Assembly: GCF_024298765.1 (NCBI RefSeq)
Contig: NZ_CP101210.1
Reading direction: 5' to 3' (one strand)
Source: Escherichia coli
GTDB taxonomy: Bacteria; Pseudomonadota; Gammaproteobacteria; Enterobacterales; Enterobacteriaceae
DNA length: 64,000 bases
Shown: in pieces, positions 1 through 59,265 of the stretch
How positions within the stretch are numbered: position 1 is the stretch's first letter
How the letters are laid out: each line of letters starts with the position of its first letter
The notes under the pieces: model-generated
The model's database searches: none
What the model saw: the letters and a program-made list of their open reading frames with translations, nothing else
Told to the model about the DNA's origin: nothing
Program-made: the position numbers and the translations under genes

Positions 1-2283
1 TTTCATGCTGTGGCGGGTTCCCTGTGCCACAATGTCAGCCCACAGGCCGGAGGACGTGTGTGTCAGATTCAGGTATCCGCCCAGGCTGCCGGCATCATCC
101 CGGACCGTGCCGGCGCGGGAACCGTCATCATCCTTAACATCAACGGAAGAATGGCCTGCGGCACCATACACCCCTGTCGTCAGAGACATACCGGCAACCT
201 CTGTTCTGAGCAGGTCACCCTCCAGACGGACGAAGCCATAGCTGCCGCTGCTTTCCGGCGTGGCTCCACGGGCAATACCGCCGTTGTTATCGTGACCGAG
301 ATGACCGCCCTGAATGCTGAGACGGACGCTGTTATTTTCACCGTTTACACCGGTCTGATGGCTGCGGGAGCCTGCCAGAATCCGGTCATAGTCCATTGCC
401 TGTGTCAACATGGAGGCATACAGGGGGACTTCAGCACGATAAGCATTTTCACTGCGCAGGTACCAGTCTTCATCGCTGTCACGGTTCAGGGTGTAGTTAA
501 AGGCGCCGGCCTGAAGCGGGCGACTCAGGGCAAACGCACCTTCTTCTGTGGTGGCACCATTCTGTGCATCCACAACCCGGATACCCTGTCCGGAGGTTGC
601 CACCCCGAGGTTACTGTTTCCGACATTTGTAAACGCAAGCCAGGTTTTGCCGGTTGCCTGACCACCATTAATCACCAGCTGGTCAGAGGCATTGCTGCCA
701 TCAAGGCGAACACGCATATTGATGGTGCCACCCTGACCGGTGAGGTTACTGGTGGTCAGTTTATGGAACGTTACCGGGGCGTCGCCTTTTGCAACAGCAC
801 GGCTCAGGACGGCATCCTGTGTCGTCTGATTATCAAAGCGAATCTCCCCTGCGTTAACAATATCGCCGGTACTGACCACATCACCATTCAGTACCATGCT
901 GGCGCCTTTACTGAGCTGTGTTCTGCCACTCAGACTTCCCCCGGCAGCCAGCGTCAGTGTTCCACGATGTCCGACAGTGGTGTTGCCAGCCTGTCCCCCG
1001 GCATTAACCGTAAAGCTGCCGCCATTTTCCAGCAGCAGGCCGCTGGCCTGACCGGATATGCCATCAATACTGAACTTACCGCTGGCATTGGTCCCCTCAA
1101 CAGTGGCACCACTGTCTGCAATCAGGGCACCACCGGATGTCATGGTGACACCTGTCGCCTTACCACCGGCAGACACTGCCAGGGTTCCGCCGTCATCCAC
1201 CCGTGTTTTCTGCGCTGAATGGCCTTCCAGTACATCCAGGCGACCGCCGGACTCCAGAACAACGCCGTCAGCCTTACCGTTTTCCACCGTGAAATTGCCC
1301 AGACGGTTGCTGCCAAGAACCGTTGCCGCAGTACTGGTGACCAGTGCTCCACCCTGTTTCAGGGTGACATTCGTGGCTGTACCACCGGCGTTCACCTGCA
1401 GTTTGCCTTTCTGGTTAACGGTGGTGAAATCCGCCAGACCACCTTCCTTGACAATCTGCCAGCCGTCACTGTTTACAACCGTGTCAGAGGCTGTGCCTCC
1501 GTTGTGCACATACTGGTAACCGCCATTCAGTGTGGTATCCAGCGCATGCCCGTGTACCGTCTGGTCGCCGCCGGCATAAACCACAGTGGTATTTGCTGTT
1601 CCTTCAATAGCCACAATCTGACGACCATTTTTATTGATGGTGGTACGTACGGCATTTCCGCGAACAAACTGCCCGGTATCACCATTTTCTGCATCCGGTC
1701 CCCCTTCCGCGCCGGTATTCACAACCGTGTCGGTTGCCACTGCGCCGGATTTGACGGCCTGCCAGCCCTTCTCATTAATGACAGTACCCGTTGCAATCCC
1801 GCCTTCATGTACCCACTGCTCACCGCCGTTCAGAGTGGTGTTCACTGCCTGCCCCTGAAGGCTCTGTCCGCCTCCGGCACTGATAACCGTGTCTGAAACG
1901 CTTCCTCCGGCATTCACTCTCTGAAGACCACCACCGGTGACAGTAGTGTTGTTGGCGGTACCGCCATTTTGTATCCATTGGCCGCCGGTATTGGCCTCGT
2001 TATCCGGCCCATACTCCAGCCCGGTACTGATGGTCATTCCGTTGGCCGTACCGAAGACAATCTGGTTGTCATGATTTGTCAGTGTTCCGTCGTTCACGGT
2101 TTCTCCCGCCTGTACAACCGTGTCAGCAGCCAGTGCCGGGACTGATGTGACAGCAGCAAGAGACAGCGCAACCGCCACACCGGCGCGTTTTCCCCGTGAG
2201 CGGGCCAGTTCGGAAGCCACCACCAGGGTGCCCGTAATGTGATTCCATACCAGCCTGTAGCTGGTGTTCAGATGTCGTTTCAT
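1..2283 (-). CDS. flu: Antigen 43 (Ag43/Flu) self-associating autotransporter adhesin; N-terminal ~760 codons, 3' end runs off the window
   Basis: Reverse translation from ATG at 2281-2283 reads MKRHLNTSYRLVWNHITGTLVVASELARSRGKRAGVAVALSLAAVTSVPALA followed by Gly/Thr/Asn-rich beta-helix passenger repeats; frame stays open to position 1. Not in the ORF track because no stop lies in the window. Confidence 0.9.
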   Translation of the reverse strand, partial: MKRHLNTSYRLVWNHITGTLVVASELARSRGKRAGVAVALSLAAVTSVPALAADTVVQAGETVNDGTLTNHDNQIVFGTANGMTISTGLEYGPDNEANTGGQWIQNGGTANNTTVTGGGLQRVNAGGSVSDTVISAGGGQSLQGQAVNTTLNGGEQWVHEGGIATGTVINEKGWQAVKSGAVATDTVVNTGAEGGPDAENGDTGQFVRGNAVRTTINKNGRQIVAIEGTANTTVVYAGGDQTVHGHALDTTLNGGYQYVHNGGTASDTVVNSDGWQIVKEGGLADFTTVNQKGKLQVNAGGTATNVTLKQGGALVTSTAATVLGSNRLGNFTVENGKADGVVLESGGRLDVLEGHSAQKTRVDDGGTLAVSAGGKATGVTMTSGGALIADSGATVEGTNASGKFSIDGISGQASGLLLENGGSFTVNAGGQAGNTTVGHRGTLTLAAGGSLSGRTQLSKGASMVLNGDVVSTGDIVNAGEIRFDNQTTQDAVLSRAVAKGDAPVTFHKLTTSNLTGQGGTINMRVRLDGSNASDQLVINGGQATGKTWLAFTNVGNSNLGVATSGQGIRVVDAQNGATTEEGAFALSRPLQAGAFNYTLNRDSDEDWYLRSENAYRAEVPLYASMLTQAMDYDRILAGSRSHQTGVNGENNSVRLSIQGGHLGHDNNGGIARGATPESSGSYGFVRLEGDLLRTEVAGMSLTTGVYGAAGHSSVDVKDDDGSRAGTVRDDAGSLGGYLNLTHTSSGLWADIVAQGTRHSMK

Positions 2284-2494
2284 CAGCTTTTCCTTACAGA
2301 GGGTGAATAAAAAAGCCGGTACCCACAAAAGTGGATACCGGCAGGTACAAAACAGCATGGTCAGATAAAGTGGTTTTTCCCGGACATAAATGTTTCCCCT
2401 CTCTCATCCGCCAGAGAAGTATCAGTCCGTTGTGTGCAATTCCGTTCTGCATGATGAAGAGATTCAGCTGCCTTTTCGCAGACCATTAACCACT

Positions 2495-2540
2495 ATAAAC
2501 GATCGATAGTAACGATCGATACCTGTTTTATCGATCGTTT
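2495..2540 (-). promoter_or_regulatory. agn43 phase-variation switch region: three closely spaced GATC (Dam) sites in the flu leader, the expected OxyR-binding region
   Basis: GATC at about 2501-2504, 2514-2517 and 2533-2536 within aaacgatcgatagtaacgatcgatacctgttttatcgatcg, roughly 220-250 bp upstream of the flu ATG; matches the known Dam/OxyR switch architecture of agn43. Confidence 0.7.
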
Positions 2541-2653
2541 TATTCTATTAACAGCAAGGCAGTCACGCAAGAGAAAGAGGTGGATATGAGGGGGGTGTAT
2601 CATGTTTTCAGTTGGTTAACGCAATGTAATCAGGCATTTCCCTGGCAGACTGT

Positions 2654-3526
2654 TCAGAAGAAAATCCAGTTCCATACAGCGCGGGCAACAGAGACCACCG
2701 AGTCACGGACGGCACGCAGAACCGTGCGTGCAACAGAGGCAATACAGACGCTCTCCGCCGTGTCAAATATCCGGTCCACCGCACCGGTAAACTGTTCACG
2801 GGCCTGAGACCGGACAGATTCCGTGCGCAGCTCGTCCTGCAGGCGGGTCATCAGGGGACTGGCGGCATGGTCGGGAAGCGCTGTCATGAGCGCACTGACC
2901 AGCGTATCCAGTTCCCAGCCGGTGCAGGCCGATACGGCCACAACCGGATGTACGGGCCGGAACAGCCGGAATACCGCATCTGTTTTCTCACGAATGTTCT
3001 GTGCCTGTGCGGGAGAAGGCTGAATACCGGCCATATCCCATTCATGGCAGGGCTCCGTTTTGTCGGCCTGCGTCACCACAAACAGCACCCGCTGATGTCC
3101 CCGGTGCAGGATGTGTCGCCAGAAATACTCATCCACAGACAGGGCGCGGTCATCGGCTTTAATCAGCCACAGCACCAGGTCCAGTTCGGGCAGAATGTCA
3201 CGGTACAGGGCTTCATACTCTGCATCCCTGTCCCGGCTCTCGCCCACCCCGGGCAGGTCAGTGATAACCATGCTGTGACCGTGGCCACTCAGACGGAAGC
3301 GCCGCACTTCCCGGGTGCCGGCGTGAACATCACTGACCGGGGTGACCTCCCCCTGAAACAGCGCATTACAGAGTGAGGATTTACCGGCCCCGCTTTTACC
3401 CATAATGCCAATCACGGGTTCGTGACTGGTGAGTTTGCGCAGATGTTCCAGGATGTGACGGGAAAGTGAGTAAGGCAGGGAAGAAAGTGGTTTTTCAATT
3501 GCCTCAATGGCATCAGACGGATTCAT
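2654..3526 (-). CDS. yeeP: YeeP/YkfA/YfjP-family GTPase (CP4-type prophage-island protein)
   Basis: ORF 2654..3565; P-loop GIMGKSGAGKSS and DLPGVGE switch motif; position immediately upstream of flu as in CP4-44. Start at the internal MNPSD Met (3526) is my preference; the ORF-track start is 3565. Confidence 0.75.
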   Translation of the reverse strand: MNPSDAIEAIEKPLSSLPYSLSRHILEHLRKLTSHEPVIGIMGKSGAGKSSLCNALFQGEVTPVSDVHAGTREVRRFRLSGHGHSMVITDLPGVGESRDRDAEYEALYRDILPELDLVLWLIKADDRALSVDEYFWRHILHRGHQRVLFVVTQADKTEPCHEWDMAGIQPSPAQAQNIREKTDAVFRLFRPVHPVVAVSACTGWELDTLVSALMTALPDHAASPLMTRLQDELRTESVRSQAREQFTGAVDRIFDTAESVCIASVARTVLRAVRDSVVSVARAVWNWIFF

Positions 3527-3789
3527 ACATGTATTCCCGGTGAAAAAAGACAAAACCCCGCGCACCGGAAAGGTGGCGGGGGATTCACGGAGATAATATC
3601 TGTCTGAAATTATTTAGAATGCACCTGGTGCACTGCAAAGGAAAGGCAATATTCCGTTCCTCCTCCTTGTCGTGAATACCCCAGGTATCTCACAATGTAC
3701 ACCGACTTACTCCGGGGCTGCCTGAACCACAAGATTGCTGTAGAATTGCCCCCAATGATTCAGGTCCAAACCAGGAAAATGGATTAAAA

Positions 3790-5346
3790 ATGACAAGTAT
3801 TCAACAACGAGCAGAACTGCACCGCCAGATATGGCAAATTGCCAATGATGTCAGAGGTTCTGTTGACGGATGGGATTTTAAGCAATACGTTCTGGGCGCG
3901 CTTTTCTACCGTTTTATCAGCGAAAATTTTTCCAGCTATATTGAAGCCGGTGATGACAGTATCTGTTATGCGAAACTGGATGACAGCGTAATTACTGATG
4001 ACATTAAAGACGATGCCATCAAAACTAAAGGCTACTTCATCTACCCCAGTCAGCTTTTCTGCAACGTAGCTGCGAAAGCAAATACCAATGACAGACTGAA
4101 TGCAGATTTAAACAGTATCTTCGTTGCTATCGAAAGTTCTGCTTACGGTTACCCTTCAGAAGCTGACATCAAAGGTTTGTTTGCTGATTTCGATACCACC
4201 AGTAACCGCCTGGGTAACACCGTTAAGGATAAAAATGCCCGCCTGGCTGCGGTTCTGAAAGGGGTTGAAGGGTTAAAACTTGGTGACTTCAACGAACATC
4301 AGATTGACCTGTTCGGCGATGCCTATGAGTTCCTGATTTCTAACTATGCGGCGAATGCTGGTAAGTCAGGCGGCGAGTTTTTTACACCGCAGCACGTCTC
4401 CAGGCTGATTGCACAACTGGCTATGCACGGGCAGACCAGCGTTAACAAAATCTACGACCCGGCAGCAGGTTCCGGTTCGCTGTTGTTGCAGGCTAAAAAA
4501 CAGTTTGATGACCATATCATCGAAGAAGGTTTTTTTGGTCAGGAAATCAACCATACGACCTATAACCTGGCGCGTATGAACATGTTTTTGCACAACATCA
4601 ACTACGACAAGTTTGATATCAAGTTGGGCAATACGCTGACTGAGCCGCACTTCAGAGATGAAAAACCGTTTGATGCCATCGTTTCTAACCCGCCGTATTC
4701 GGTGAAATGGATTGGCAGCGATGACCCGACGCTGATTAACGATGAACGTTTTGCCCCGGCTGGCGTCCTGGCCCCCAAATCCAAAGCTGACTTTGCGTTT
4801 GTACTACATGCGCTGAACTATCTTTCGGCCAAAGGTCGTGCTGCGATTGTCTGCTTCCCGGGTATTTTTTACCGTGGCGGCGCAGAGCAGAAAATCCGTC
4901 AATATCTGGTCGACAATAACTATGTCGAAACCGTGATTTCACTGGCACCGAACCTGTTCTTTGGCACCACCATTGCCGTAAACATTCTGGTGCTGTCTAA
5001 ACATAAAACGGATACCAACGTTCAGTTTATTGACGCCAGCGAACTGTTCAAAAAAGAGACTAACAACAATATCCTGACCGATGCCCATATCGAACAGATT
5101 ATGCAGGTATTTGCCAGCAAGGAAGATGTTGCTCATCTGGCAAAATCTGTCGCGTTCGAAGCCGTTGTCGCGAATGACTATAACCTGTCGGTGAGCAGCT
5201 ATGTGGAAGCGAAAGATAACCGCGAAATTATCAATATTGCTGAACTGAATGCAGAGCTGAAAACCACGGTCAGCAAAATCGACCAGTTGCGTAAAGATAT
5301 TGATGCAATTGTGGCTGAAATTGAAGGCTGCGAGGTGCAGAAATGA
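3790..5346 (+). CDS. hsdM: Type I restriction-modification N6-adenine DNA methyltransferase subunit HsdM (type IC-like)
   Basis: 518 aa; SAM-binding motif DPAAGSGS and catalytic motif SNPPYS; stop overlaps the hsdS start (ATGA). Confidence 0.9.
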
Positions 5347-6569
5347 GCGAGTTGACTTATCTGGAAAAATTGCTGGATGGGGTTAAGGTTGAGTGGCAAA
5401 CACTAGGGAAAGTGCTTAAACGAACTAAAGGCACAAAAATAACCGCTGGGCAGATGAAAGCTCTTCACAAAGATAATGCGCCGCTTAAAATTTTTGCAGG
5501 AGGGAAAACAGTAGCCTTTGTTGACTTTAAAGATATACCAGAGAAAGATATTAATAGAGAGCCATCGATTATTGTTAAATCCAGAGGTATTATCGAATTC
5601 GAGTATTACGATAAACCATTCTCTCACAAAAATGAGATGTGGTCATATCACTCAAATAATGATGCGATAAGCATAAAGTATATTTATTACTTCCTAAAAA
5701 TAAATGAAGGATATTTCCAGAAAATTGGGGGTAAAATGCAAATGCCACAAATTGCAACTCCTGATACAGATAAGTTTGAAGTTCCAATCCCCTGCCCGGA
5801 TAATCCGGAAAAATCCCTTGCCATCCAGTCTGAAATCGTTCGGATTCTGGATAAGTTTACTGCACTTACCGCTGAGCTTACCGCTGAGCTTAATATGCGT
5901 AAAAAACAATACAACTACTATCGCGACCAGTTACTGAGTTTTGAGGATGGTGAGGTTGAGTGGAAGGCGTTAGGGACTATATGCCAAATTGGCGATGGCA
6001 ATCACTCATCAAAGTATCCTAAGGCGAATGAAATGATTGAGCAGGGGATACCCTTCATTCGTGGTACCAATATGGTGAATGGTACAATATGCAATCAAGA
6101 TATGAAGTACATATCTAAAGAAAAACACAATGAACTAAAAAAGGGGCATTTAAAAGCATTTGATGTTTTGATAGCTAATAGGGGAGAGGTTGGGAAGGTA
6201 GCATATGTTCCAGAGGGATATTCTGGATCTAATTTAAACTCCCAGTTAGCATGGCTTAGAGCCAACCCGGAAATTATCATTAATAGATATTTATTTTTCA
6301 TTCTTTGCTCATCAACCATACAGAATAAACTTTCTGGTGAAGGAGGGGCATTACAACAACTTACTATCAAGAACATAAAAAACATTCAGATACCTGTTCC
6401 ATCAATAACCGTTCAGAGCAATATCGTATCTTTTTTGGACAAGTTCGACTCGTTAACCAACTCAATCAGTGAAGGCTTGCCACGTGAAATCGAGTTGCGC
6501 CAGAAACAATACGAGTACTATCGTGATTTACTGTTCAGTTTCCCAAAACCTGATACTGTCAGTAATTAA
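5343..6569 (+). CDS. hsdS: Type I restriction-modification specificity subunit HsdS, type IC family, two target-recognition domains
   Basis: 408 aa; central conserved region [27 protein letters not shown] and C-terminal repeat [15 protein letters not shown]; the TAEL tandem repeat is the type IC (EcoR124I-family) hallmark. Confidence 0.85.
5868..5891 (+). repeat. 2 x 12-bp in-frame direct repeat (accgctgagctt) encoding TAEL-TAEL in the HsdS central spacer region
   Basis: Read directly in the sequence; in type IC HsdS the TAEL copy number sets the spacer length of the recognition site (EcoR124I vs EcoR124II). Confidence 0.85.
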
Positions 6570-6690
6570 TTGACCATTGCTACCGACCGGGCCACCTTAA
6601 CACCCGGTCTGTATATAGACTATTTTTTACGCGCCGGAAGTCACTCTTAACGCCCTTCCGGCCCTTGCCAGGCGGCACAAAGGATGCGCT

Positions 6691-9600
6691 ATGACTCATC
6701 AAACACACACCATTGCTGAATCCAATAACTTTATCGTCCTTGATAAGTACATCAAAGCTGAGCAAACAGGCGACAGCTATCAGAGCGAATCGGACCTGGA
6801 ACGGGAACTGATTCAGGACCTGCGAAATCAGGGCTATGAATTTATATCCGTAAAATCTCAGTCAGCGATGCTGGCCAACGTTCGGGAACAGCTTCAGAAC
6901 CTCAATGGTGTGGTGTTTAATGACAGCGAGTGGCGGCGTTTCACGGAGCAGTTTCTGGATAATCCGAGCGATGGCATCCTGGATAAAACCCGTAAAATTC
7001 ATATCGACTACATCTGCGACTTTATTTTTGACGACGGGCGTCTTGAGAACATCTATTTGATAGATAAAAAGAATCTCATGCGCAATAAAGTGCAGATTAT
7101 CCAGCAGTTTGAACAGGCAGGCTCTCATGCTAACCGTTATGACGTCACGATCCTGGTTAATGGTTTACCGCTGGTGCAAATCGAACTAAAAAAACGCGGG
7201 GTGGCGATTCGTGAGGCTTTCAACCAGATACATCGTTACAGTAAAGAGAGTTTTAACAGCGAAAATTCCCTGTTTAAGTATCTGCAACTGTTTGTCATTT
7301 CTAACGGCACCGATACCCGTTACTTTGCCAACACCACAAAGCGCGATAAAAACAGTTTTGACTTCACCATGAACTGGGCGAAATCAGACAACACGCTGAT
7401 TAAAGACCTCAAAGACTTTACCGCTACCTTTTTCCAGAAACATACTCTGCTTAATGTTCTGGTGAACTACAGCGTTTTTGACAGCAGTCAGACGCTACTA
7501 GTGATGCGACCGTACCAGATTGCTGCCACCGAGCGCATTCTGTGGAAAATTAAGAGCTCCTTTACAGCGAAGAACTGGTCAAAACCGGAAAGCGGTGGGT
7601 ATATCTGGCACACTACCGGTTCTGGTAAAACCCTCACCAGCTTTAAAGCCGCGCGTCTGGCAACAGAGCTGGACTTTATTGATAAAGTCTTCTTCGTGGT
7701 CGACAGGAAAGACCTCGATTACCAGACCATGAAGGAATATCAGCGTTTTTCGCCAGACAGCGTCAACGGCTCGGAAAATACCGCAGGCCTTAAACGAAAT
7801 CTGGATAAGGACGATAACAAAATTATCGTCACTACTATTCAGAAACTCAATAACCTGATGAAAGCAGAAAGCGACCTGCCTGTATATAATCAGCAAGTGG
7901 TGTTTATATTTGATGAATGCCACCGCAGCCAGTTTGGAGAAGCGCAGAAAAACCTGAAGAAGAAATTCAAACGCTATTATCAGTTTGGTTTTACCGGCAC
8001 CCCTATTTTCCCGGAAAACGCCTTAGGCTCAGAAACAACCGCCAGCGTATTTGGTCGTGAATTGCATTCGTATGTAATTACCGATGCGATTCGTGACGAA
8101 AAAGTGCTCAAATTCAAGGTGGACTACAACGATGTGCGACCACAGTTTAAGTCTTTAGAGACAGAAACTGACGAGAAAAAACTAAGTGCGGCTGAAAATC
8201 AGCAGGCGTTTCTTCATCCCATGCGTATTCAGGAAATCACGCAATATATTCTGAATAATTTCCGCCAGAAAACCCACCGTACTTTCCCTGGCTCCAAAGG
8301 TTTTAATGCCATGCTGGCAGTAAGCAGCGTGGATGCCGCGAAAGCCTATTACGCGACGTTTAAACGGTTACAAGAGGAAGCCGCTAATAAATCTACTACC
8401 TGTAAACCACTGCGTGTTGCGACAATCTTCTCCTTTGCCGCTAATGAAGAACAAAATGCGATTGGTGAAATATCCGATGAAACTTTTGATACCAGCGCAA
8501 TGGACAGCAGTGCTAAAGAGTTTCTTGACGCTGCAATTCGTGAGTATAACAGCTATTTTAAAACTAACTTCAGCACCGACAGTAAGGGTTTTCAGAACTA
8601 CTATCGTGATTTAGCCCAACGGGTTAAAAATCAGGATATCGATCTGTTAATTGTCGTGGGGATGTTTTTAACCGGTTTCGATGCTCCAACATTGAACACG
8701 CTATTCGTCGATAAAAACTTGCGTTTTCACGGCCTGATGCAGGCATTTTCCCGCACCAACCGTATTTATGATGCAACTAAAACCTTCGGTAATATCGTCA
8801 CTTTCCGCGATCTGGAACGCTCAACCATCGATGCCATAACGCTGTTTGGTGACAAAAACACCAAAAATGTAGTGTTAGAAAAGAGTTATGCAGAGTATAT
8901 GGAAGGCTTTACTGATGCTGCTACTGGTGAAGCTAAGCGCGGCTTTATGGCAGTAGTTGCAGAACTGGAACAACGGTTCCCTGACCCTGCCAGTATTGAA
9001 AGTGAAAAAGAGAAGAAAGACTTCGTTAAACTGTTTGGTGAATACCTGCGTGCCGAGAACATCCTGCAAAACTATGATGAATTTGCCACGCTGAAAGCCC
9101 TGCAACAAATCGATCTTAGCGATCCTGTTGCAGTAGAAAAATTCAAAGCAGAACATTATGTGGATGATGAAAAGCTCGCTGAATTGCAAACAATTCGTCT
9201 CCCTGCTGATCGCAAGATTCAGGATTATCGTTCTGCCTATAACGATATTCGCGACTGGCAGCGCCGTGAGAAAGAAGCTGAGAAAAAAGAGAAATCAACC
9301 ACTGACTGGGATGACGTAGTTTTTGAGGTCGATTTGCTGAAATCTCAGGAAATAAACCTGGATTATATCCTTGGTCTGATTTTCGAGCACAACAGACAAA
9401 ACAAAGGTAAGAGCGAAATGATCGAAGAGGTCAAACGCTTAATTCGTTCAAGCCTGGGGAACCGTGCTAAAGAGGGCCTGGTGGTCGATTTTATTCAGCA
9501 AACGAACCTGGATGATTTACCGGACAAAGCCAGCATCATTGACGCATTCTTTACGTTTGCTCAACGCGAACAGCAACGTGAAGCAGAAGCCTTGATCAAA

Positions 9601-9807
9601 GAAGAAAATCTCAATGAAGAGGCGGCGAAACGCTATATTCGCACATCTTTAAAACGCGAATACGCCACCGAAAATGGCACGGAATTAAACGAGACACTGC
9701 CCAGACTCAGTCCTTTAAATCCGCAATATAAAACGAAAAAACAGACTGTTTTTCAAAAAATTAGCGCATTTATTGAAAAATTTAAGGGGGTGGGTGGAAA
9801 GATTTAG
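6691..9807 (+). CDS. hsdR: Type I restriction endonuclease subunit HsdR (SF2 helicase/nuclease)
   Basis: 1038 aa; helicase motifs TGSGKT and DECHRSQ; RBS aaagga before the ATG; gene order M-S-R as in type IC systems. The TAG stop sits directly against the IS5 end. Confidence 0.9.
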
Positions 9808-11003
<1,196 letters not shown>

Positions 11004-12343: not shown

Positions 12344-13763
12344 TCTTTTTCTCCTGCGCCTGATGTTTCTTAAACCAGCTGCGGAAGCTCTCGCCGTCAG
12401 CATCAGGCAGATCGCGCGCCTCCATCCAGTCACCAATCGCGCCAACCTTGAGCGGGGTTTTGCCGCCATTGAGAAACCAGCTCGCCGCATGCGCGCCCGC
12501 CATCATCCCGACTTTCCACAGCCCCGGATGGCTATTGGCATAGGCGAACATCTTGATCGCCCGTCGCTCGGCTTTCGGCGTAATGCCCTCCTCGGCCATC
12601 ACCCGGCGATGACGCAGGATCAGTTTTGACAACGGAATACGCACCGGGCAGACGCTGTCACAAGCCGTGCACAAAGAACAGGCGTACGGCAGGTCTTTAA
12701 AATCTTTATAGCCGCCGAGCAGCGGAGAAATCACCGCGCCGATAGGGCCGGGATAGATAGAGCCATAGCCGTGCCCGCCGATGTGGCGGTACGCCGGACA
12801 GGTGTTCATACAGGCTCCGCAGCGGATGCAGCGCAGCACATCGCGAAACTCTGAGCCCAGCACCTGCGAGCGACCGTTATCGACAATCACCAGATGGAAC
12901 TCTTCCGGTCCGTCAACGTTGTCCGCCTCACGCGGGCCGGTCAGCCAGGTGTTGTAGCCCGTCAGACGTGCGCCCACGGCGCTGCGCGCCAGCATGGTAA
13001 TCAGCACATCCACCTCGGCAAAGGTCGGCGCGATACGCTCCATGCCCATCACCGCAATGTGCGTTTTCGGTAGCGTGGTGCACATGCGCGCGTTGCCTTC
13101 GTTGGTCACCAGACACACCGAGCCGGTTTCCGCCACGGCAAAGTTACAGCCAGTAATACCGATTTCGGCACTGAGGAAATCCTCGCGGATCTTCTGACGA
13201 ATGAACAAGGTCATAGCTTCCGGGGTTTCCGGGCCGTCGTACCCCAGACGTTCGTTCAGCACGCGGCGGATCTGGTAGCGATCTTTATGAATCGCCGGAA
13301 CCACGACGTGCGAAGGCGGATCCTGATCCAACTGCAGGATATATTCCCCGAGATCGGTTTCGATCACCTGGATTCCGGCATCCTGCAACACATGGTTGAC
13401 GCCGATTTCTTCGGTCACCATCGACTTGGACTTCACCACCTTCTGCGCATTTTTACTCTGCGCGACCTGCAAAATGTAGCGAGTGGCATCTTCTTTGGTT
13501 TTGGCGAAATAGACGTGTCCGCCGTTTTCCGTCACTTTCTCGGAGAGTTGGTACAGGTAAGTGTCGAGGTTGCTCAGAACGTGATCGCGGATCTGGCTGG
13601 CACGATCGCGCCATTCTTCCCAGTGGCCTAACTCATCGACCATTTTTTGCCGATTCGCGCCGATACGCTCCTGCGCATTAGCCACGGCTTTGCGCATAAT
13701 CGGATCTTCTATCTGCTGACGAATACGCAGTTTAAATTCTACATCGCTGGTTTTTATCGACAT
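12336..13763 (-). CDS. ykgF: Lactate utilisation iron-sulfur protein B (LutB/YkgF)
   Basis: 475 aa; two 4Fe-4S ferredoxin-type Cys clusters (CIRCGACMNTCP and CSLCTACDSVCP). Confidence 0.85.
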   Translation of the reverse strand: MSIKTSDVEFKLRIRQQIEDPIMRKAVANAQERIGANRQKMVDELGHWEEWRDRASQIRDHVLSNLDTYLYQLSEKVTENGGHVYFAKTKEDATRYILQVAQSKNAQKVVKSKSMVTEEIGVNHVLQDAGIQVIETDLGEYILQLDQDPPSHVVVPAIHKDRYQIRRVLNERLGYDGPETPEAMTLFIRQKIREDFLSAEIGITGCNFAVAETGSVCLVTNEGNARMCTTLPKTHIAVMGMERIAPTFAEVDVLITMLARSAVGARLTGYNTWLTGPREADNVDGPEEFHLVIVDNGRSQVLGSEFRDVLRCIRCGACMNTCPAYRHIGGHGYGSIYPGPIGAVISPLLGGYKDFKDLPYACSLCTACDSVCPVRIPLSKLILRHRRVMAEEGITPKAERRAIKMFAYANSHPGLWKVGMMAGAHAASWFLNGGKTPLKVGAIGDWMEARDLPDADGESFRSWFKKHQAQEKKNG

Positions 13764-19209: not shown

Positions 19210-19688
19210 GTTGGAGTCATTACCAATGGTGGTAACCGTATAGTCCCAAATAAAGATAAAAATGCTTCATTCTTACTCACCATTCCATTTGCTAAGTCTG
19301 TTATTGATGAAATATTGAGTAAAGAAAATCTGTCATGGTGCTCGAAAAATACTTTGCCAATATTGCATGCTTTTAGTATTAGAGCTTTAACCTCCTAATT
19401 GCTGAAGTAATGATACAAGCTACAGTATTGGTGACGAATCTATAGACAAGGAGATAAAAACCAAATATCAGAATTATTTTTGATAGTGCTGGTAAAGAAG
19501 CGGTGTTTGATATCAGCATGTTTATCGGAAAAAAGCTTACCTGGAGCTTTGAAAAATTGCAAAGCAGGGCCTGACAATGAAGGCCCTAATACTGTACTGA
19601 ATGTTAACTCAGTACCAAATTACAAGGAAAAGTATTTTTTCTGGTAAGATTCTGTATACATAATAAATCACCTTATAGTTACAATAGG

Positions 19689-20170
19689 TCAAAAACCGCT
19701 GTAGCCAAAGTTACGCTGGCCTGATGCTTTAGTGTCGAGCTTCGTCAAATAATCCAGACGTACCAATAAGCGCTGGTACTGCTCTGGGAAATCAGGCTCG
19801 TTAATATCCAGGATGTAACGTCCATTAGCAGGGAAATGAACTAATCCCTGGTGATCTTCCAGTTCCAACCCTAAGGCACTGTACCAGGCTCCGGTAATTA
19901 ACCCTCTCAGTGTGTCAGAGCGCTCATAGTTTCCCAGGTGGTAATAGGCGTCTTTGTTAAAAAAAGGCAGACGTGATAATGACATTTAAAGGACTGCGTA
20001 TATTCTTTCGCCCAGATAATACAAACCGCCGTTGCGTAGGTGCGTTTGCCTTGTTGTTTTTTACTGTGTTGATCTGCATTAATTTTCGCATTCAGCGAGT
20101 TACGGAAACGAGATATCTCTCCGGGGATCAGGTTAGGGAAACAGGTAATGATATCCCCGTTGTCAATCAC
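19689..20170 (-). pseudogene. Hypothetical gene, apparently frameshifted (two overlapping minus-strand ORFs 20170->19907 and 19985->19689)
   Basis: Two same-strand ORFs overlap in different frames between IS1 copy 1 and IS2; no family recognised. Could be unrelated spurious ORFs. Confidence 0.25.
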
Positions 20171-20260
20171 AGGAGGGTAATGGAGATCCCCCCGTATTGC
20201 TGTTATTCTGGAAGTGTTTTTAATATTCGTATTGATAGTTCTCAGAGATTGGATTTGCCC

Positions 20261-21166
20261 CTATATTTCCAGACACCTGTTATCACTTAACCCATTACTG
20301 GCCCGCTGCCGTAGATATTCCCGTGGCGAGCGATAACCCAGTGCACTATGCGGGTGCCATTCGTTATAATGCTCGAACGCCTCTGCAAGGTTCTTTGCTG
20401 CCGTTAACCCGTCTGGTTTAGGCATGATACTGATGTAGTCACGCTTTATCGTTTTCACGAAGCTCTCTGCTATGCCGTTACTCTCCGGACTCTGCACCGC
20501 CGTGTTCTTCGGTTCAAGCCCTAATATCCGGGCAAACTGCCGTGTTTCATTAGCCCGGTAGCATGAACCATTATCCGTCAGCCACTCTACTGGAGACGCC
20601 GGAAGCTCGTTGCCGAAGCGGCGTTCCACCGCTCCTGGCATGACGTCCTGTACTGTTTCACTGTCGAAGCCGCCCGTAGTGACTGCCCAGTGCAGTGCCT
20701 CACGGTCACAGCAGTCCAGCGCGAACGTGACTCGCAGTTTTTCTCCGTTATCACAGCGGAACTCGAACCCGTCAGAGCACCATCGTTGATTGCTTTCTTT
20801 CACGGCCACTTTGCCAGTATGTGCCCGTTTCGATGGCGGTACAGCGGTTTTTCGCTCAAGCAACAGCGCATTCTGGCGCATGATCCGGTAAACACGTTTG
20901 GCATTGATCGCAGGCATACCATCAAGTTCGGCCTGTCTGCGAAGCAGCGCCCATACCCGACGATAACCATACGTGGGCAGCTCTCCGATAACATGGTGTA
21001 TACGGAGAAGCACATCCGTATCATCTGAGTGACGGCTGCGGCGACCATCTTTCCAGTCATCGGTTCGTCTGAGAATTACGTGCAACTGCGCACGCGACAC
21101 CCGGAGACAACGGCTGACTAAGCTTACTCCCCATCCCCGGGCAATAAGGGCGCGTGCGCTATCCAC
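20261..21166 (-). CDS. insD: IS2 transposase OrfB (InsD)
   Basis: 301 aa with DDE-transposase C-terminus ...[18 protein letters not shown]. Confidence 0.9.
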
Positions 21167-21489
21167 TTTTTTGCACGCCCGTATTCAACGGCTTCTTTAA
21201 GGAGTTCATTTTCCATCGTTTTTTTGCCGAGCAGGCGCTGGAGTTCTTTAATCTGCTTTATGGCAGCAGCAAGTTCAGAGGCAGGAACGATCTGTTCTCC
21301 TGCGGCCACAGCAGTAAGACTTCCCTCCTGGTATTGCTTGCGCCAGAGAAATAACTGGCTGGCTGCCACACCGTGTTGCCGGGCAACAAGGGAGACCGTC
21401 ATTCCCGGTTCAAAGCTCTGCTGAACAATAGCGATCTTTTCCTGTGTAGTACGCCGTCTGCGTTTCTCCGGTCCTAAGACATCAATCAT
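21124..21489 (-). CDS. insC: IS2 OrfA (InsC), HTH protein
   Basis: Start at [26 protein letters not shown] within ORF 21124..21534. Confidence 0.85.
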
Positions 21490-21533
21490 CTGCTCTCCAA
21501 TGACTAGTCTAAAAACTAGTATTAAGACTATCA

Positions 21534-23450
<1,917 letters not shown>

Positions 23451-23463
23451 TACCGCAGGAGGC

Positions 23464-24918
23464 ATGATGGAGAGCATTAATAATCAAGTGCAGTCGGTAC
23501 GCCAGTTGCTGGCCATTCCCCAACTGGCCATCCCAAGCTATCAGCGACCTTACCGCTGGGGCTCCAAGAATATCTCGGATCTCTTTACCGATTTGGCAAC
23601 CCATCAGGACAAGAGCGCCTACCGGCTGGGCTCGGTGGTGTTTCATCAGCACACCGATAGTGAGCAGGGCGAAATGCTTGATATCGTCGATGGTCAGCAA
23701 CGCACCCTGACCCTGATGTTGACCGTCAAGGCGCTGATCGAGGTGCTGGATAACGAAAATCGCAGTGGCAAAGAGAAGAGTATCCGGTTTCAACGTCAGG
23801 ATCTGCGTGAGCAATTGCAGGTCTTGCGTGGACCTATCGATGCGTTTATGCAGCGCCAGCGCTTCCCCAGCCGGGATTCGGAGTTCAACCTCAGACGTAA
23901 CTATCTGGAGTTGCGTCGGCTGGTGGCCCGCCCTGAGTTTGACGAGCAGCAAATTGACTTTCTGCTCAACCGCTGTCAGGTGGTCTGCTTTGTACTGCAG
24001 GATATCTCGGAGGCGTTCCAGTTCTTCGATTCGCAAAATGCCCGGGGGCGCGATCTGGCTCCTCACGATCTGCTCAAGGCATTTCACCTGCGCGAGTTTG
24101 CCGGTCATGAGGCCAATCTCAAGGCCGAGGCGGTCGCCCATTGGGAGCGCCTGCCAAGCGACGAGCTGGCCAATCTGTTCGCCCTCTATCTCTATCGGGT
24201 ACGCCAGTGGGCCGAGGGCAAGTCGGCCCGCTACTTTGGCAAGGGGGAGGTGGATCTCTTCAAGGGGGTCAACCTAGATCGGGTAGGGCATTATCCTTAC
24301 GTGGAGTCGCTGCGCATCGCCCACCACTTTGTCGATGAGTACAACAGCCAGTACCAGCGCAAGATTGACGGCCAGTACATGACGTTTCCCTTTCATCTCG
24401 ACCAGATGATCATCAATGGTCGGCGCTTTTTCGAGATGGCCGAGTACTACCAGACGCGGGTGGCCGCCATCGTGGCCGAGGAGTCTGATTCCGGCAAGGC
24501 GCAATCTGCCACCCTGCTCGGCGAAACGCTGACACCGATGGCCAGCAAGGTGCTATCGACCCTGGGCAGCTACGAGCGTCGCCACCGCACCGGGGATCGT
24601 TATGTGCGGGCCATGTTCGACTGCGCCCTGATCTTCTATATCGACAAGTTCGGCAGCCAAGGGCTGTCACTGGCCATCGAGAAGTGCTTTATCTGGGCCT
24701 ATCGCTGCCGCATCCGCCAGCAGGTAGTGCAGTTGGCAACCATGGATAACTATGTGCTGGAGCACAATCTGATCCGTGCCATTCGTGATGCTCGTCTGCC
24801 GGGAGATCTGCACGGCTTCCCTTTGCCTAGCATGAGCAGTCGAGAGAACAAGAACAATCGCAATGGTGCCGAAGATGAGCTGGTCGGGCTGTTTCGGGAG
24901 ATGAAATATTATGAATGA
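23464..24918 (+). CDS. DUF262 (ParB/Srx-like NTPase fold) protein; candidate defence component, GmrS-like
   Basis: 484 aa; DUF262 signature [10 protein letters not shown] ... [13 protein letters not shown] and [18 protein letters not shown]; RBS aggagg before the ATG; 3' end overlaps the next gene by 8 bp. Confidence 0.75.
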
Positions 24919-26953
24919 TGCAGGCGTTCGCCCCTTTTCCATTCGTGCACTGCTTGAAGATCGCGCCCGCTATCTGGTGCCCATGTACCAGCGCAACTAT
25001 GCCTGGGGTGAGGGAGAGATCACCCAGCTGCTGCAGGATGTGCTGGATTATCAGCAAAAATTGGTCAGTGGTAAGGGGCCGCAAACCTACTATATCGGCA
25101 CCCTGGTGGTGTTTGCCCGGGACGATGGCAGTTTCGAGGTAATCGATGGCCAGCAGCGCTTTACTACCCTCTCTCTGCTGGCCAATTGGCTCAAACATCA
25201 CGCGATAGATTCGGTGGATATGAGCTGGTATCAGACCATCAACCTCGCTTTTGAGAGTCGCCCGATATCGAGCCATACCTTCGAGCGCTTATGGCAGGGG
25301 GTTGCCCCCGACGATTTGCGGGGGAGTACCTTCAATGAAGGTTTGGTGAACGGTTTTGAGCTGATTGGCAAGGCAATGGCGGAGCTTGGTTTGGTAGGGG
25401 CTAAACTGACGGCCTTTTGCGACTACCTCTTCAAGCATGTGCAGATCTCTCGTATCGAAGTACCCAAGGATACCGATCTCAATCACTTCTTCGAGGCGAT
25501 GAACAATCGCGGCGAGCAGTTGGAAAAGCATGAAGTGATCAAGGCGCGGCTGATGGAGACGCTGAACCAGATACCCGAGGAAGAGCATCGTCGCCAAAGT
25601 ATTCATATCCTGACCCGGGTATGGGATGCCTGCGCCAATATGGAGCGCTATATCCAGTACGGCTTTACCCCGCAAGAGCGCCACCGTCTGTTTGGTGAGA
25701 GCGACTGGGGTCAGTTTGTGCCCCGTGATTTTGCCCATCTGCTTGATCTGCTAGGATCCCCAAACACGGCCGACGCTGCCGATAAAAGCCGTGCAGCTGC
25801 CGGTAGCCAAGGGCGCACCTTGTTGGCCATTTTGCAGGATGACAAGCTTGATGGTGAGCAGACGGTGGAGGAGGAGAGCGCAGGCTCCGAGCGCTTTAAC
25901 AGCGTCATCAACTTCTCCAACTTCTTGCTCCATGTGCTGCGACTCGTGAGCCGCGACCCGGGTAATACGGAGGGGGTGCCGCTTGATGATAAACAACTGG
26001 TCGATCAGTTTGAGCTGCGAGTGATAAGGCAACCGGATCCAGTAGCGGCAGTTCAGCGTTTTATCTATGGCCTGTTAAAGAGCAAGTATCTGTTTGATCA
26101 GTTCATCATCAAGCGCGAGTTTGCCGATGGCAAGGATAGTTGGAGTCTGAAGCGGCTGCACTGGTATTCGGAAAAGAGCGTCAGTTACATCAATACCTTT
26201 GACAAGGATGAAAATGAGAATGGTTTCTCTGGTGTTAACCGGCGGGTCCTGATGTTGCTGTCGGCGTTTCATGTGTCGACCCCGACCCTGGTTTACAAAC
26301 ATTGGCTGAATGGTGCACTGAGATATCTGTTCGACAATTGTCACCCTGATCAACCGGTGGATGCCGGGGCTTATCTGTCCTATCTGGAGAGTCAGGCTCG
26401 CCGCTTTGTCTTCCAGCGCTTTTTAGCGCCTGGTGAAGGGGCTTCCTATTACCAGATGCTCTACCTTGATAACGCCCTGTTGCCCGCCATCAATGTGGAT
26501 GAGAGTTGGCACAAGGTGATTACATCCAAACTTCGCTTCGGTCATATCGAGAACAACTTTGTCTTCAACTTCCTCGACTATCTGCTGTGGGTACGAGATC
26601 GGAATAGCGACAAAGTTGCTGGCTCCTTTGAGTTCACTTTCCGCAGCTCGGTGGAGCACTTCTCACCCCAGCATCCGATGGATGGCTATAAACCGGTTGA
26701 GCAGAGTGCACTCCATTCGTTTGGCAACCTTTGCCTTATCAGCCACAGCAAGAACTCGCGCTTGAGTAACTTCCAGCCGCAACAGAAGCAGGAGCACTTT
26801 GAAGCAAGCCTTGCCAATAACCAGACTGATAGTCTTAAATTGCTTGCTATGATTCGGCTGATGAAAGATAAAGGTCGTTGGCTGGAAGATGAGATAGCTG
26901 TGCATCAACAAGATATGTTGCAGGTCTTACTATCCAATCAAATTCAGCAATAA
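24911..26953 (+). CDS. DUF262-DUF1524 two-domain protein (GmrSD-like type IV restriction-enzyme architecture: N-terminal NTPase, C-terminal His-Me finger nuclease)
   Basis: 680 aa; N-terminal YQRNYAW ... [11 protein letters not shown] and [17 protein letters not shown] (DUF262); C-terminal [14 protein letters not shown] ... [17 protein letters not shown] (DUF1524-like). Confidence 0.75.
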
Positions 26954-27023
26954 CGGATTGAATCTGTTGGTGATGCTGCCAACTTACTGATTTAGTGTAT
27001 GATGGTGTTTTTGAGGTGCTCCA

Positions 27024-27299
27024 GTGGCTTCTGTTTCTATCAGCTGTCCCTCCTGTTCAGCTACTGACGGGGTGGTGCGTAACGGCAAAAGCACTGCCGG
27101 ACATCAGCGCTATCTCTGCTCTCATTGCCGTAAAACATGGCAACTACAGTTCACTTACACCGCCTCTCAGCCCGGTACGCACCAGAAAATCATTGATATG
27201 GCCATGAATGGCGTTGGATGCCGGGCAACCGCCCGCATTATGGGCGTTGGCCTCAACACGATTTTCCGCCATTTAAAAAACTCAGGCCGCAGTCGGTAA
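27024..27299 (+). CDS. insA: IS1 InsA
   Basis: 91-aa ORF, one substitution (L to F) relative to copy 1. Confidence 0.9.
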
Positions 27300-27721
27300 C
27301 CTCGCGCATACAGCCGGGCAGTGACGTCATCGTCTGCGCTGAAATGGACGAACAGTGGGGCTACGTAGGTGCTAAATCACGTCAGCGCTGGCTGTTTTAC
27401 GCGTATGACAGGATACGGAGGACGGTTGTGGCGCACGTCTTCGGTGAACGCACTCTGGCCACACTGGAGCGTCTTCTGAGCCTGCTGTCGGCCTTTGAGG
27501 TCGTGGTATGGATGACGGATGGCTGGCCGCTTTATGAATCACGCCTGAAGGGAGAACTGCACGTTATCAGCAAGCGATTTACGCAGCGCATTGAGCAGCA
27601 TAACCTGAATCTGAGGCAGCATCTGGCAAGGCTGGGCAGGAAGTCACTGTCGTTCTCAAAATCGGTGGAGCTGCATGACAAAGTCATCGGGCATTATCTG
27701 AACATAAAACACTATCAGTAA
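27218..27721 (+). CDS. insB: IS1 InsB
   Basis: 167-aa ORF overlapping insA. Confidence 0.85.
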
Positions 27722-27736
27722 GTTGGAGTCATTACC

Positions 27737-27964
27737 CAGCTCATCGCGCAGTGAGCCAAAATCCGCATCTGAAGCACGGTCAAAAAGGTAATCCAGTTTG
27801 CGATTTACGTCGCTCAGCTGGTTGGTAACTATTTTCAACCCGGACTCCAGATCACCTGGGCCAGCTTCAAGGCAGCGCCGCAGATACTCTGACCGATTAC
27901 CACCTGAAACCAGGTCTATATAGGCCAAAAGTTCATCTGATACTTTTGCGGTTATTGTTGGCAT
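27737..27964 (-). pseudogene. Ribbon-helix-helix (CopG/Arc/TrwA-like) DNA-binding protein gene, 3' end interrupted by IS1
   Basis: MPTITAKVSDELLAYIDLVSGGNRSEYLRRCLEAGPGDLESGLK...: beta-strand then two helices as in RHH proteins; after ~76 codons the frame runs into the IS1 end (ORF 27656..27964). Confidence 0.5.
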
Positions 27965-28302
27965 CCAGTCCTCACTTTGTGCATTTTTTAAACGAAAAAA
28001 GGGTGTCTAATACGGTGAAATCATAGTATTACCAAAGTAATAAATAAAAATTGTTTTAAATCAGTAGGTTAGATTAGATTTGTAATGCCTGGGTAATACC
28101 GCAGCATGGCTAAATTTGGTTTTTTTTCTTTTAAATCAGTTGGATAGCGTGATTTATCACGCTGCGTTAGGTGTATAGCAGGTTAAGGGATAAAAAATCA
28201 TCTTTTTTTGGTAGGGCGATCTCCGTAGGTTAAGGGTCATTTGGCTAAAAAGCGTCCTATTCTTTGATGGTCATGCTTGCATGACCATCTGAGCAACCAA
28301 AA

Positions 28303-28448
28303 ACTACAGATAAACTACAGATAAACTACAAAAAACGTTTTGCCTTAGTATTGGAAGACTACAAATAGACTACAATAAAACTACAAAGAAACTACAAAAA
28401 ACATGACAGACTACAAATAGACTACAAGAATACTACAGATAAACTACA
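28303..28448 (+). repeat. Iteron array: 11 copies of ACTACA(A/G) in 11-bp register, three clusters (3+4+4); candidate centromere-like or operator site
   Basis: ACTACA at ~28303, 28314, 28325, 28358, 28369, 28380, 28391, 28410, 28421, 28432, 28443; preceded by a perfect palindrome gatggtcatgcttgcatgaccatc (28266-28289); just upstream of the StbA-like gene. Confidence 0.8.
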
Positions 28449-28509
28449 AAACTCGATTGACCCCTTCTTACGAGTGTTGTAGAGTCATTTTCATACAACG
28501 GAGGGGGTT

Positions 28510-28896
28510 ATGAATAAACCAGCAGATCTGAAACCCCGCAACTTATCGGCTGCTGTCAGATTGCGCCTAAATGAAATCGAGAACTGGCTGGACAGAGGGC
28601 TAACGCGGCATGAAATTGCTGAAATCCTCGACAGCGAATACAGCTTTTCGGTAACAGCCAAAGGGCTTGAGATGGCACTGTATAGAACGCGGCAAAACCG
28701 AAAAAATGTATTGCACAATACACATGATAAGAGTAGCGCGAAGGGTGCAGCGGAAAGTGTATTGCACAATACACAACCGTCTGAGCCTGAAGCGCAGGAA
28801 AGTGAAAAAGCAGAGAGTCCCGGCATTATTGATAAAGAATTCTTCAATAAAATCGGTGAGAATTTCGACCCTAAGAAGTTCAACAAAAAATTCTGA
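28510..28896 (+). CDS. Small putative DNA-binding protein, candidate iteron-binding partition adaptor (StbA/ParR-like); function inferred from context
   Basis: 128 aa; RBS ggaggg 6 nt before the ATG; directly downstream of the iteron array and upstream of a ParA-like gene fragment. Confidence 0.4.
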   Translation: MNKPADLKPRNLSAAVRLRLNEIENWLDRGLTRHEIAEILDSEYSFSVTAKGLEMALYRTRQNRKNVLHNTHDKSSAKGAAESVLHNTQPSEPEAQESEKAESPGIIDKEFFNKIGENFDPKKFNKKF

Positions 28897-28904
28897 GGTG
28901 ATTT

Positions 28905-29091
28905 ATGAAAGTAGCGGTAATTAATTACAGTGGCAGTGTTCGTAAAACCTTAATTTCATCTTACCTGTTAGCTCCGCGCCTGACTGGTGCAAAGTTCTAT
29001 GCGGTAGAGACTATCAACCAGTCTGCTTCCGATCTGGGTATTGAAAATGTGACCAGTTTTAAAGGTGACGACTTCTCACGTTTGATTGAGG
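28905..29091 (+). pseudogene. N-terminal fragment of a ParA/StbB-like ATPase gene, truncated by a solo IS1 end
   Basis: MKVAVINYSGSVRKTLISSYLLAPRL... resembles a deviant Walker-A start; ORF ends at 29096 where the IS1 terminal sequence begins. Confidence 0.4.
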
Positions 29092-29123
29092 GGTAATGAC
29101 TCCAACTTACTGGTAGTGTTTTA
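29092..29123. mobile_element. Solo IS1 terminal-repeat remnant (~32 bp)
   Basis: ggtaatgactccaacttactggtagtgtttta matches the IS1 end (ggtaatgactccaacttattgatagtgtttta) with 2 mismatches, then diverges. Confidence 0.7.
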
Positions 29124-29173
29124 GCGAAGTTAAGTGACACAATAGTTTAATCTGGAGGAATTAATGAAGAGTT

Positions 29174-42300: not shown

Positions 42301-42376
42301 TGGTGCCGATAATAGGAGTCGAACCTACGACCTTCGCATTACGAATGCGCTGCTCTACCAACTGAGCTATATCGGC
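42301..42376 (-). tRNA. thrW: tRNA-Thr (anticodon CGU)
   Basis: Reverse complement gccgatatagctcagttggtagagcagcgcattcgtaatgcgaaggtcgtaggttcgactcctattatcggcacca: cloverleaf with anticodon loop attCGTaat, T-loop ggttcgactcc, encoded CCA. Confidence 0.95.
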
Positions 42377-56254: not shown

Positions 56255-56257
56255 GCA

Positions 56258-56535
56258 TGATAAGACGCGTCTGCGTCGCATCTGGCACCGGTACACAACC
56301 GCCGGATGCGGCGTGAACGCCTTATCCGGCCTACGGGTGAGCACGGTTTTGTCGGCATGATAAGACGCGTGGCGTCGCATCTGGCATCGGCGCACAACCG
56401 CCGGATGCGGCGTGAACGCCTTATCCGGCCTACTGGTGAGTGCGGTTTTGTCGGCATGATAAGACGCGTAGTGTCGCATCAGACACCGGCGCACAACCGC
56501 CAGATGCGGCGTGAACGCCTTATCCGGCCTACAAA
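56258..56535. repeat. REP/BIME cluster: three tandem ~98-bp units of repetitive extragenic palindromes
   Basis: Repeated gcatgataagacgcg...gtcgcatc...gccggatgcggcgtgaacgccttatccggcctac units at ~56258, 56356, 56454. Confidence 0.85.
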
Positions 56536-59134: not shown

Positions 59135-59265
59135 GGATGTGGCGTGAACGCATTATTCGGCCTACGGTTCGGGTGCAGATTGTAGGCATGATAAGACGCG
59201 TCAGCGTCGCATCAGGCATCAGAGCACAAATGCCGGATGCGGCGTAAACGCCTTATCTGGCCTAC
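59135..59265. repeat. REP elements between yafJ and gmhA
   Basis: ggcatgataagacgcgtcagcgtcgcatcaggc...gccggatgcggcgtaaacgccttatctggcctac. Confidence 0.8.

Follow-up and report, generated by a model that had tools for sequence, protein, structure and literature searches.

A probable Dam/OxyR switch with a leader attenuator upstream of an island copy of flu (agn43) in Escherichia coli

Described switches and the flu locus

In the published mechanism of agn43 control, OxyR bound to unmethylated sites keeps the gene in the OFF state, and methylation prevents OxyR binding and gives the ON state. Replication produces a hemimethylated intermediate at which Dam and OxyR renew their competition; because they compete again after each replication, both states are heritable yet reversible. 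The gene has a single OxyR site, and OxyR acts there solely as a repressor. We take the transcription start of K-12 agn43 to be the G of the first GATC site in the direction of transcription (GATC-I), the position at which Wallecha et al. reportedly found the transcript to start in 2002.

Two other described systems invite comparison. The Salmonella gtr loci (of phage P22 and genomic) and opvAB share with the locus studied here half-sites spaced 32 bp apart, with GATC sites embedded in them; this spacing has been described as canonical for reduced OxyR at opvAB. Paired GATC sites lie 13 bp apart inside the half-sites of gtr, as do the second and third sites here, and in gtr and opvAB methylation blocks OxyR and OxyR blocks Dam. 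Both nevertheless differ from our locus in having three or four half-sites of alternative occupancy, positioned upstream of the promoter, through which OxyR can activate, whereas here a single OxyR site of two half-sites is predicted to lie over the -10 hexamer and the start point. The pap system, run by Lrp and Dam, resembles agn43 in being an epigenetic ON/OFF switch in which Dam competes with a DNA-binding regulator at GATC sites after replication. It differs in its use of Lrp/PapI, in its two GATC boxes placed 102 bp apart and in its two mutually exclusive sets of binding sites, and no such architecture is present in the regulatory region described below.

We analysed a stretch of 64,000 nucleotides of E. 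coli DNA (contig NZ_CP101210.1 of assembly GCF_024298765.1), hereafter the window. Its first 10 kb carry the following genes.

1 to 2283, minus strand: flu/agn43, an Ag43/Cah-family autotransporter gene; the window edge cuts it, leaving codons 1-761 of about 948 inside
2654 to 3526, minus strand: YeeP-like GTPase gene, co-oriented with flu, bounding the intergenic region
3790-5346: hsdM of a type I restriction-modification system
5343-6569: hsdS of the same system
6691-9807: hsdR of the same system

The identity of the first gene is well supported. Against NF033177, the NCBIfam equivalog for Ag43/Cah (auto_Ag43; cut-off 1200 bits), the flu product reaches 1525 bits over model positions 1-761 of 948, and it contains the ESPR extended signal peptide, AIDA repeats and the AC_1 autochaperone domain in Pfam. 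All 761 of its codons inside the window are open. The intergenic region extends exactly from 2284 to 2653, from the flu ATG (2283, minus strand) to the stop codon of the upstream GTPase gene, and a YeeP-like GTPase gene adjoins the flu locus in all alleles sampled. The complete type I restriction-modification system (3790-9807) adjoins the GTPase-flu pair and is transcribed divergently from it.

The minus-strand region from 2570 to 2284 is in all probability the regulatory region of the Ag43/Cah autotransporter gene, homologous to the Dam/OxyR switch of K-12 agn43. The anatomy of the region, its homology, its motif statistics and its conservation are observed directly. The interval 2284-2653 had been labelled the agn43 leader in a preliminary description of this DNA; an attenuating leader is indeed present, and the label is too narrow in that the interval also includes the promoter.

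GATC sites, predicted OxyR site and putative promoter

The elements of the proposed switch lie in the upstream half of the intergenic region, listed here in the orientation of flu.

2565 to 2570, minus strand: putative -35 hexamer TTGCGT, matching at 3/6 positions, with a 17-nt spacer
2542 to 2547, minus strand: putative -10 hexamer TAGAAT, inside half-site A
2502 to 2548, minus strand: predicted OxyR tetramer site, half-sites A and B with a 17-bp linker, 32 bp centre to centre
2548-2534, minus strand: predicted OxyR half-site A, ATAGAATAAAACGAT, 8/10
2516-2502, minus strand: predicted OxyR half-site B, ATCGTTACTATCGAT, 8/10
2533 to 2536: GATC-I, the first site met in the direction of flu transcription, at -253 relative to the ATG; the 3' element of half-site A; invariant in intact alleles
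2514 to 2517: GATC-II, at -234, 19 bp past GATC-I and overlapping half-site B at its 5' element
2501 to 2504: GATC-III, at -221, 13 bp past GATC-II and overlapping half-site B at its 3' element

The preliminary description had noted three GATC sites in 36 bp upstream of flu. The span of 36 bp is exact, and the location requires qualification: flu is a minus-strand gene, and the sites lie 218-253 bp upstream of its ATG.

The number of GATC sites is by itself uninformative. The window contains 224 of them, or 1 per 286 bp, and random placement yields an expectation of 1.25 clusters of three sites in no more than 36 bp, with a probability of 0.69 for at least one. Three such clusters are observed (2501-2536, 13583-13607 and 59303-59333), and the raw count was rejected as a significant signal. 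The second cluster lies inside lutB and the third inside the 3' end of gmhA; neither has the 19/13-bp spacing, and both are consistent with chance. With more than one cluster expected and two others present, the three sites upstream of flu might likewise be taken for a chance cluster devoid of regulatory meaning. This reading has next to no probability. The exact 19/13 spacing occurs once in the window, against 0.0055 occurrences expected; the sites are positionally homologous to the experimentally characterised K-12 sites and are kept across thousands of genomes; and they lie in the window's highest-scoring OxyR motif. The spacing statistics, the comparison of alleles and the OxyR motif score thus refute chance clustering, and it is the spacing of the GATC sites, together with the geometry of the OxyR motif, that carries information.

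For the comparison of alleles we sampled the regulatory regions of eleven further E. coli loci. Nine of these have an intact switch: K-12, ETEC H10407, ST131, Nissle, two O157/STEC cah loci and three others. Registers were compared without gaps, anchored on the flu start. A 13-column gap introduced by MAFFT through the GATC region between K-12 and the window proved spurious, the anchored ungapped comparison giving identical spacing. The 19/13 spacing is shared exactly by K-12 agn43, with sites at -222, -203 and -190, and by the eight further intact alleles. K-12 agn43, located in CP4-44, resembles the window also in its gene family, in the YeeP-like GTPase gene upstream, in the distance of TAGAAT from GATC-I, in the positions of the OxyR half-sites (8/10 each), and in the terminator hairpin, ribosome-binding site and start codon context.

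The OxyR motif was scored as ATAGnTnnnAnCTAT-N17-ATAGnTnnnAnCTAT on both strands of the whole window, amounting to 128 kb of strand. The site at 2548-2502 reaches 16/20, the top score on either strand, with a runner-up of 14, and a score of 16 was found in 3 of 200 whole-window shuffles; the N17 spacing was tried only after the half-site matches had been seen, which makes these figures partly post hoc, though the geometry itself is published. The same score in the same register is found in K-12 and in six of the seven other alleles scored, the seventh scoring 15. The classical contiguous consensus, ATAGnTnnnAnCTAT-N7-ATAGnTnnnAnCTAT, does not discriminate and was set aside as evidence: it gives 14/20 in K-12 and 13/20 in the window allele, a score that is attained at 36 further positions of the window.

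The N17 arrangement explains two features of the region. The first is the placement of the GATC sites, GATC-I forming the right element of half-site A and GATC-II and GATC-III the elements of half-site B. The second is the divergence between the K-12 and window alleles. The two are identical at 37 of 47 positions of the OxyR region, and the 12 nucleotides in which they differ most, AATATCTATTTT in K-12 and GATAAAACAGGT in the window, with matches at only 4/12 positions between GATC-I and GATC-II, fall in the linker between the half-sites. On reading the sequence, we saw no third OxyR half-site 32 bp to either side of A and B, and an alternative-site mechanism of the gtr type is therefore not supported.

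In the window and in the nine other intact alleles alike, the first base of TAGAAT precedes the G of GATC-I by 11 nt. The TTGCGT hexamer is conserved among window-type alleles, and its counterpart in K-12 is TTGTCC. A consensus promoter scan of 2100-3800 returned no promoter, as the -35 hexamer matches at only 3/6 positions; a sigma-70 promoter is accordingly a putative assignment made by homology, on the strength of its invariance across alleles. If transcription starts at GATC-I as in K-12, the OxyR site would cover approximately -12 to +35, including the -10 hexamer. The correspondence of the GATC sites to the known Ag43 switch, proposed in the preliminary description, is borne out by the 19/13 spacing, the position of TAGAAT, the N17 OxyR motif and the NF033177 score of 1525 bits.

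All sequence elements needed by the published agn43 mechanism are intact in the window, and the switch is very likely a working member of the known agn43 Dam/OxyR family of switches. For OxyR binding, methylation states, start site and switching of this allele we infer the behaviour from published work on homologous alleles. By that analogy, a sigma-70 promoter (-35 TTGCGT, -10 TAGAAT) would fire at or beside GATC-I, and one OxyR tetramer site with half-sites 32 bp apart would overlap the -10 hexamer, the start point and all three GATC sites. OxyR on unmethylated sites would repress transcription and shield the sites from Dam, giving a heritable OFF state; where Dam methylates the sites first after replication, OxyR would not bind and the promoter would be free, giving a heritable ON state. 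Both dam and oxyR lie outside the window; the host is presumed to encode them, in view of the roughly 99% identity to E. coli of the core genes beside thrW.

Allelic variation and the 5' end of the transcript

The window carries the common form of the regulatory allele. Of 5426 complete E. coli genomes, 3243 (about 60%) contain its 56-bp core, in up to 5 copies per genome, compared with 1236 genomes for the K-12-type core, and the 370-bp intergenic region gives 6408 matches in 4017 genomes. The allele is rare on plasmids, with 11 records, several of which are of chromosome-scale length (0.8-4.9 Mb), and a search of phage records with the regulatory region returned no match. Patterns built on the terminator and the flu start gave no match in contigs sampled at one genome per species, from which the distribution outside E. 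coli is not assessable.

Three loci depart from the common arrangement. The STEC-type cah locus of NZ_AP042695.1 carries at positions 400-450 of the sampled locus a natural 13-bp deletion between direct repeats TATCGATCGTT, which leaves only two GATC sites and removes OxyR half-site B; the variant predicts a switch that OxyR cannot close. NZ_CP075665.1 has an IS3 element in place of the promoter and GATC region, with the distal leader and terminator kept. NZ_CP172217.1 represents a third allele type, with a GATC spacing of 18/13, the same TAGAAT and a variant terminator, and an IS66 element takes the place of the downstream gene.

The ST131 genome sampled has the same regulatory allele as the window, with one substitution in the 56-bp core. 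In EC958, a strain of ST131, deletion of oxyR increased agn43 transcription 121-fold; in CFT073 and 83972, mutation of oxyR relieved the repression of IrmA, whose gene is transcribed together with agn43 (PMC4807369). These results speak directly for OxyR control of this type of allele. They also bear on the proposal that the 12 nucleotides distinguishing the window from K-12 between GATC-I and GATC-II weaken OxyR binding, so that the allele is locked or strongly biased, with constitutive ON expression. The left half-site, read in the K-12 N7 register, does fall from 6/10 to 2/10, and natural loss of the switch occurs, both by the 13-bp deletion that leaves two GATC sites and by IS3 replacement. 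A locked allele is nonetheless very improbable: both half-sites in the N17 geometry score 8/10, equal to K-12; the allele is carried by an ST131 genome, and agn43 of an ST131 strain is strongly repressed by OxyR, as is IrmA in the other two strains; and the three GATC sites are invariant in 10/10 intact alleles while nearby positions vary.

The reading of the window allele as a switch of the K-12 type meets one further observation from EC958, in which 5'RACE placed the 5' end of the transcript 228 bp from the start codon (PMC4807369); this was the one published 5'-end mapping located for a strain of the lineage with this allele. In the window allele -228 corresponds to 2511. This base falls in the gap separating GATC-II from GATC-III, 25 nt further into the transcript than 2536, the counterpart of the K-12 start, and no reasonable -10 hexamer precedes it. 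The EC958 end may be a processed end or a stop of reverse transcriptase in a GATC-II/III hairpin. If it were a true start, the transcript would include GATC-III alone of the three sites, and OxyR would cover the -35 and -10 of a second promoter; the bias of switching and the direct effect of Dam on the promoter could then depart from the K-12 model. Together with the different linker and a leader longer by 31 nt, the -228 end would then suggest that the common non-K-12 allele is not wired exactly like that of K-12, an outcome which we regard as quite improbable.

The SMRT methylome of one E. coli strain includes six unmethylated GATC positions upstream of agn43 genes among 18 genome-wide. For methylome analyses of the present locus, the adenines at 2502/2503, 2515/2516 and 2534/2535 are those expected to appear as rare unmethylated Dam sites.

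The leader, the island and the flu coding sequence

The downstream part of the intergenic region is occupied by the flu leader, with the following features.

2284 to 2536, minus strand: flu 5' leader, 253 nt if transcription starts as in K-12
2302 to 2538, minus strand: match to Rfam RF00124 IS102 (IsrC), 70.4 bits, full model 1-206
2306 to 2342, minus strand: intrinsic terminator with a 12-bp stem (2342-2315) containing 8 GC pairs, a UUUU loop and then UUUUUUAUU (2314-2306)
2295-2291, minus strand: Shine-Dalgarno AAGGA of the flu leader

The terminator hairpin has a predicted stability of -24.1 kcal/mol (z = -6.7), equalled in 0/200 shuffles, and its stem is invariant in the alleles compared. 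Its end is separated from the Shine-Dalgarno sequence by 10 nt and from the flu ATG by 22 nt. The IS102 match, well above the gathering score of 46 bits, begins 2 nt before GATC-I and ends at the terminator. It agrees with the RF00124 family in its 5' end at ACGAUC and in the terminator at its 3' end, and differs in length, spanning 237 nt against the 206 positions of the model, with two large insertions in a middle part of low conservation. Between alleles, too, the middle of the leader is poorly kept: the leader measures 222 nt in the K-12 type and 253 nt in the window type, and its central part is largely unalignable.

Since the IS102 match ends at a terminator just before the ribosome-binding site, the IsrC/IS102 "small RNA" is best understood as the prematurely terminated flu leader. 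Transcripts would cross the 253-nt leader and meet the strong terminator immediately ahead of the ribosome-binding site; those terminated would constitute the IsrC/IS102 RNA of roughly 235 nt, and those reading through would express flu. The leader terminator would in this way add a second, attenuation layer of control to the epigenetic one.

The full-length RF00124 match, running from 2 nt before GATC-I to a strong terminator, could also be read the other way round, as a free-standing small-RNA gene with targets in trans, for which the GATC/OxyR region serves as promoter and flu expression is a by-product of read-through; one paper speculates on cyoD as a target of IsrC. We consider this unlikely. 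The RNA and flu are collinear, no separate promoter serves the RNA, and its 3' end stops 22 nt short of the flu start codon; published descriptions treat it as the attenuated flu leader; the central leader differs between K-12 and the window, contrary to what a conserved trans-acting seed would require; and the cyoD target is a prediction only.

A leader peptide was likewise considered and rejected. A 52-aa ORF (2452-2294) runs through the terminator and had suggested ribosome-mediated antitermination. Its frame varies by allele, being in frame with flu in K-12 and frameshifted in the O157 type, and no Shine-Dalgarno sequence precedes any ATG of this ORF.

The flu locus is part of an island bounded by a tRNA gene.

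42301-42376: tRNA-Thr(CGU), thrW, adjoining proA/proB and marking the island boundary

The roughly 42 kb to the left of thrW have a GC content of 47.4%, against 52.1% on the core side, and carry IS elements and defence genes. The term "island copy", used for this flu gene in the preliminary description, is therefore fair in view of the thrW boundary, the GC difference and the IS and defence genes. No integrase adjoins thrW; in a relative strain, the opposite end of the island has a tyrosine recombinase, some 4-5.5 kb past the left edge of the window.

Two closely related genomes, 13P460A and 2020CK-00188, are both identical to the window over 1-10110, and they disagree on the state of flu. In 13P460A the gene is an intact 948-codon ORF. 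In 2020CK-00188, whose island shows 14 mismatches to the window in 42.4 kb, flu has become a pseudogene, which breaks off at codon 873 and continues into a fragment of a JAB-domain gene (690-3595 of the sampled locus). A 10.3-kb insert at 19225-29508 is common only to the window and 2020CK-00188 and is absent from 13P460A. In 2020CK-00188, yeeR and its neighbours are deleted beside the truncated flu.

The switch might hence be intact and the flu gene a dead copy, such that switching would alter the transcription of the leader/IsrC RNA and of a pseudogene without yielding a phase-variable surface Ag43. We consider this possible but less likely than not: the window stops at codon 761 of about 948, and the sole genome sharing the 10.3-kb insert has the truncated gene, whereas 13P460A is equally identical over 1-10110 and has flu intact at 948 aa, and the 761 codons in the window are open and match the Ag43 model throughout positions 1-761. 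The switch itself is probably active at the DNA level, and a phase-variable surface phenotype is not guaranteed, because flu is cut at codon 761 and one of the two closest relatives has a truncated pseudogene. The earlier suggestion that this copy is probably phase-variable thus holds for the sequence elements of the switch, all of which are intact, and is not assured for the surface phenotype.

If the 3' end of flu is intact, mixed Ag43-ON and Ag43-OFF subpopulations are expected, which would affect aggregation, biofilm formation and the reproducibility of phenotypes. The switch, its dependence on OxyR and Dam, the leader attenuation and the IsrC RNA have all been published before, and nothing in them is novel here; the significance of the locus lies mainly in annotation, in that the flu copy of the thrW island carries an undamaged epigenetic switch and attenuator.

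Several other features of the window were recorded. The segment 19225-29508 is bounded by IS1 copies and carries an IS3 element, a methylase fragment and two adjacent DUF262 genes (23467-24918 and 24911-26953), which match PADLOC HEC-06, Orf5 and SspE through the N-terminal domain only. The gene pair at 29174-33534 encodes an AAA/RecD-like ATPase of 979 aa and a TPR protein of 474 aa; over nearly their whole length the two match A and B of PDC-M16, a candidate defence system in PADLOC (1348 and 833 bits). An IS1 element cuts the ATPase gene in 13P460A. In the core-genome part of the window, three intergenic copies of the Rfam family naRNA4, a REP-derived nucleoid-associated RNA, are located at 56254-56430 and 59185-59262.
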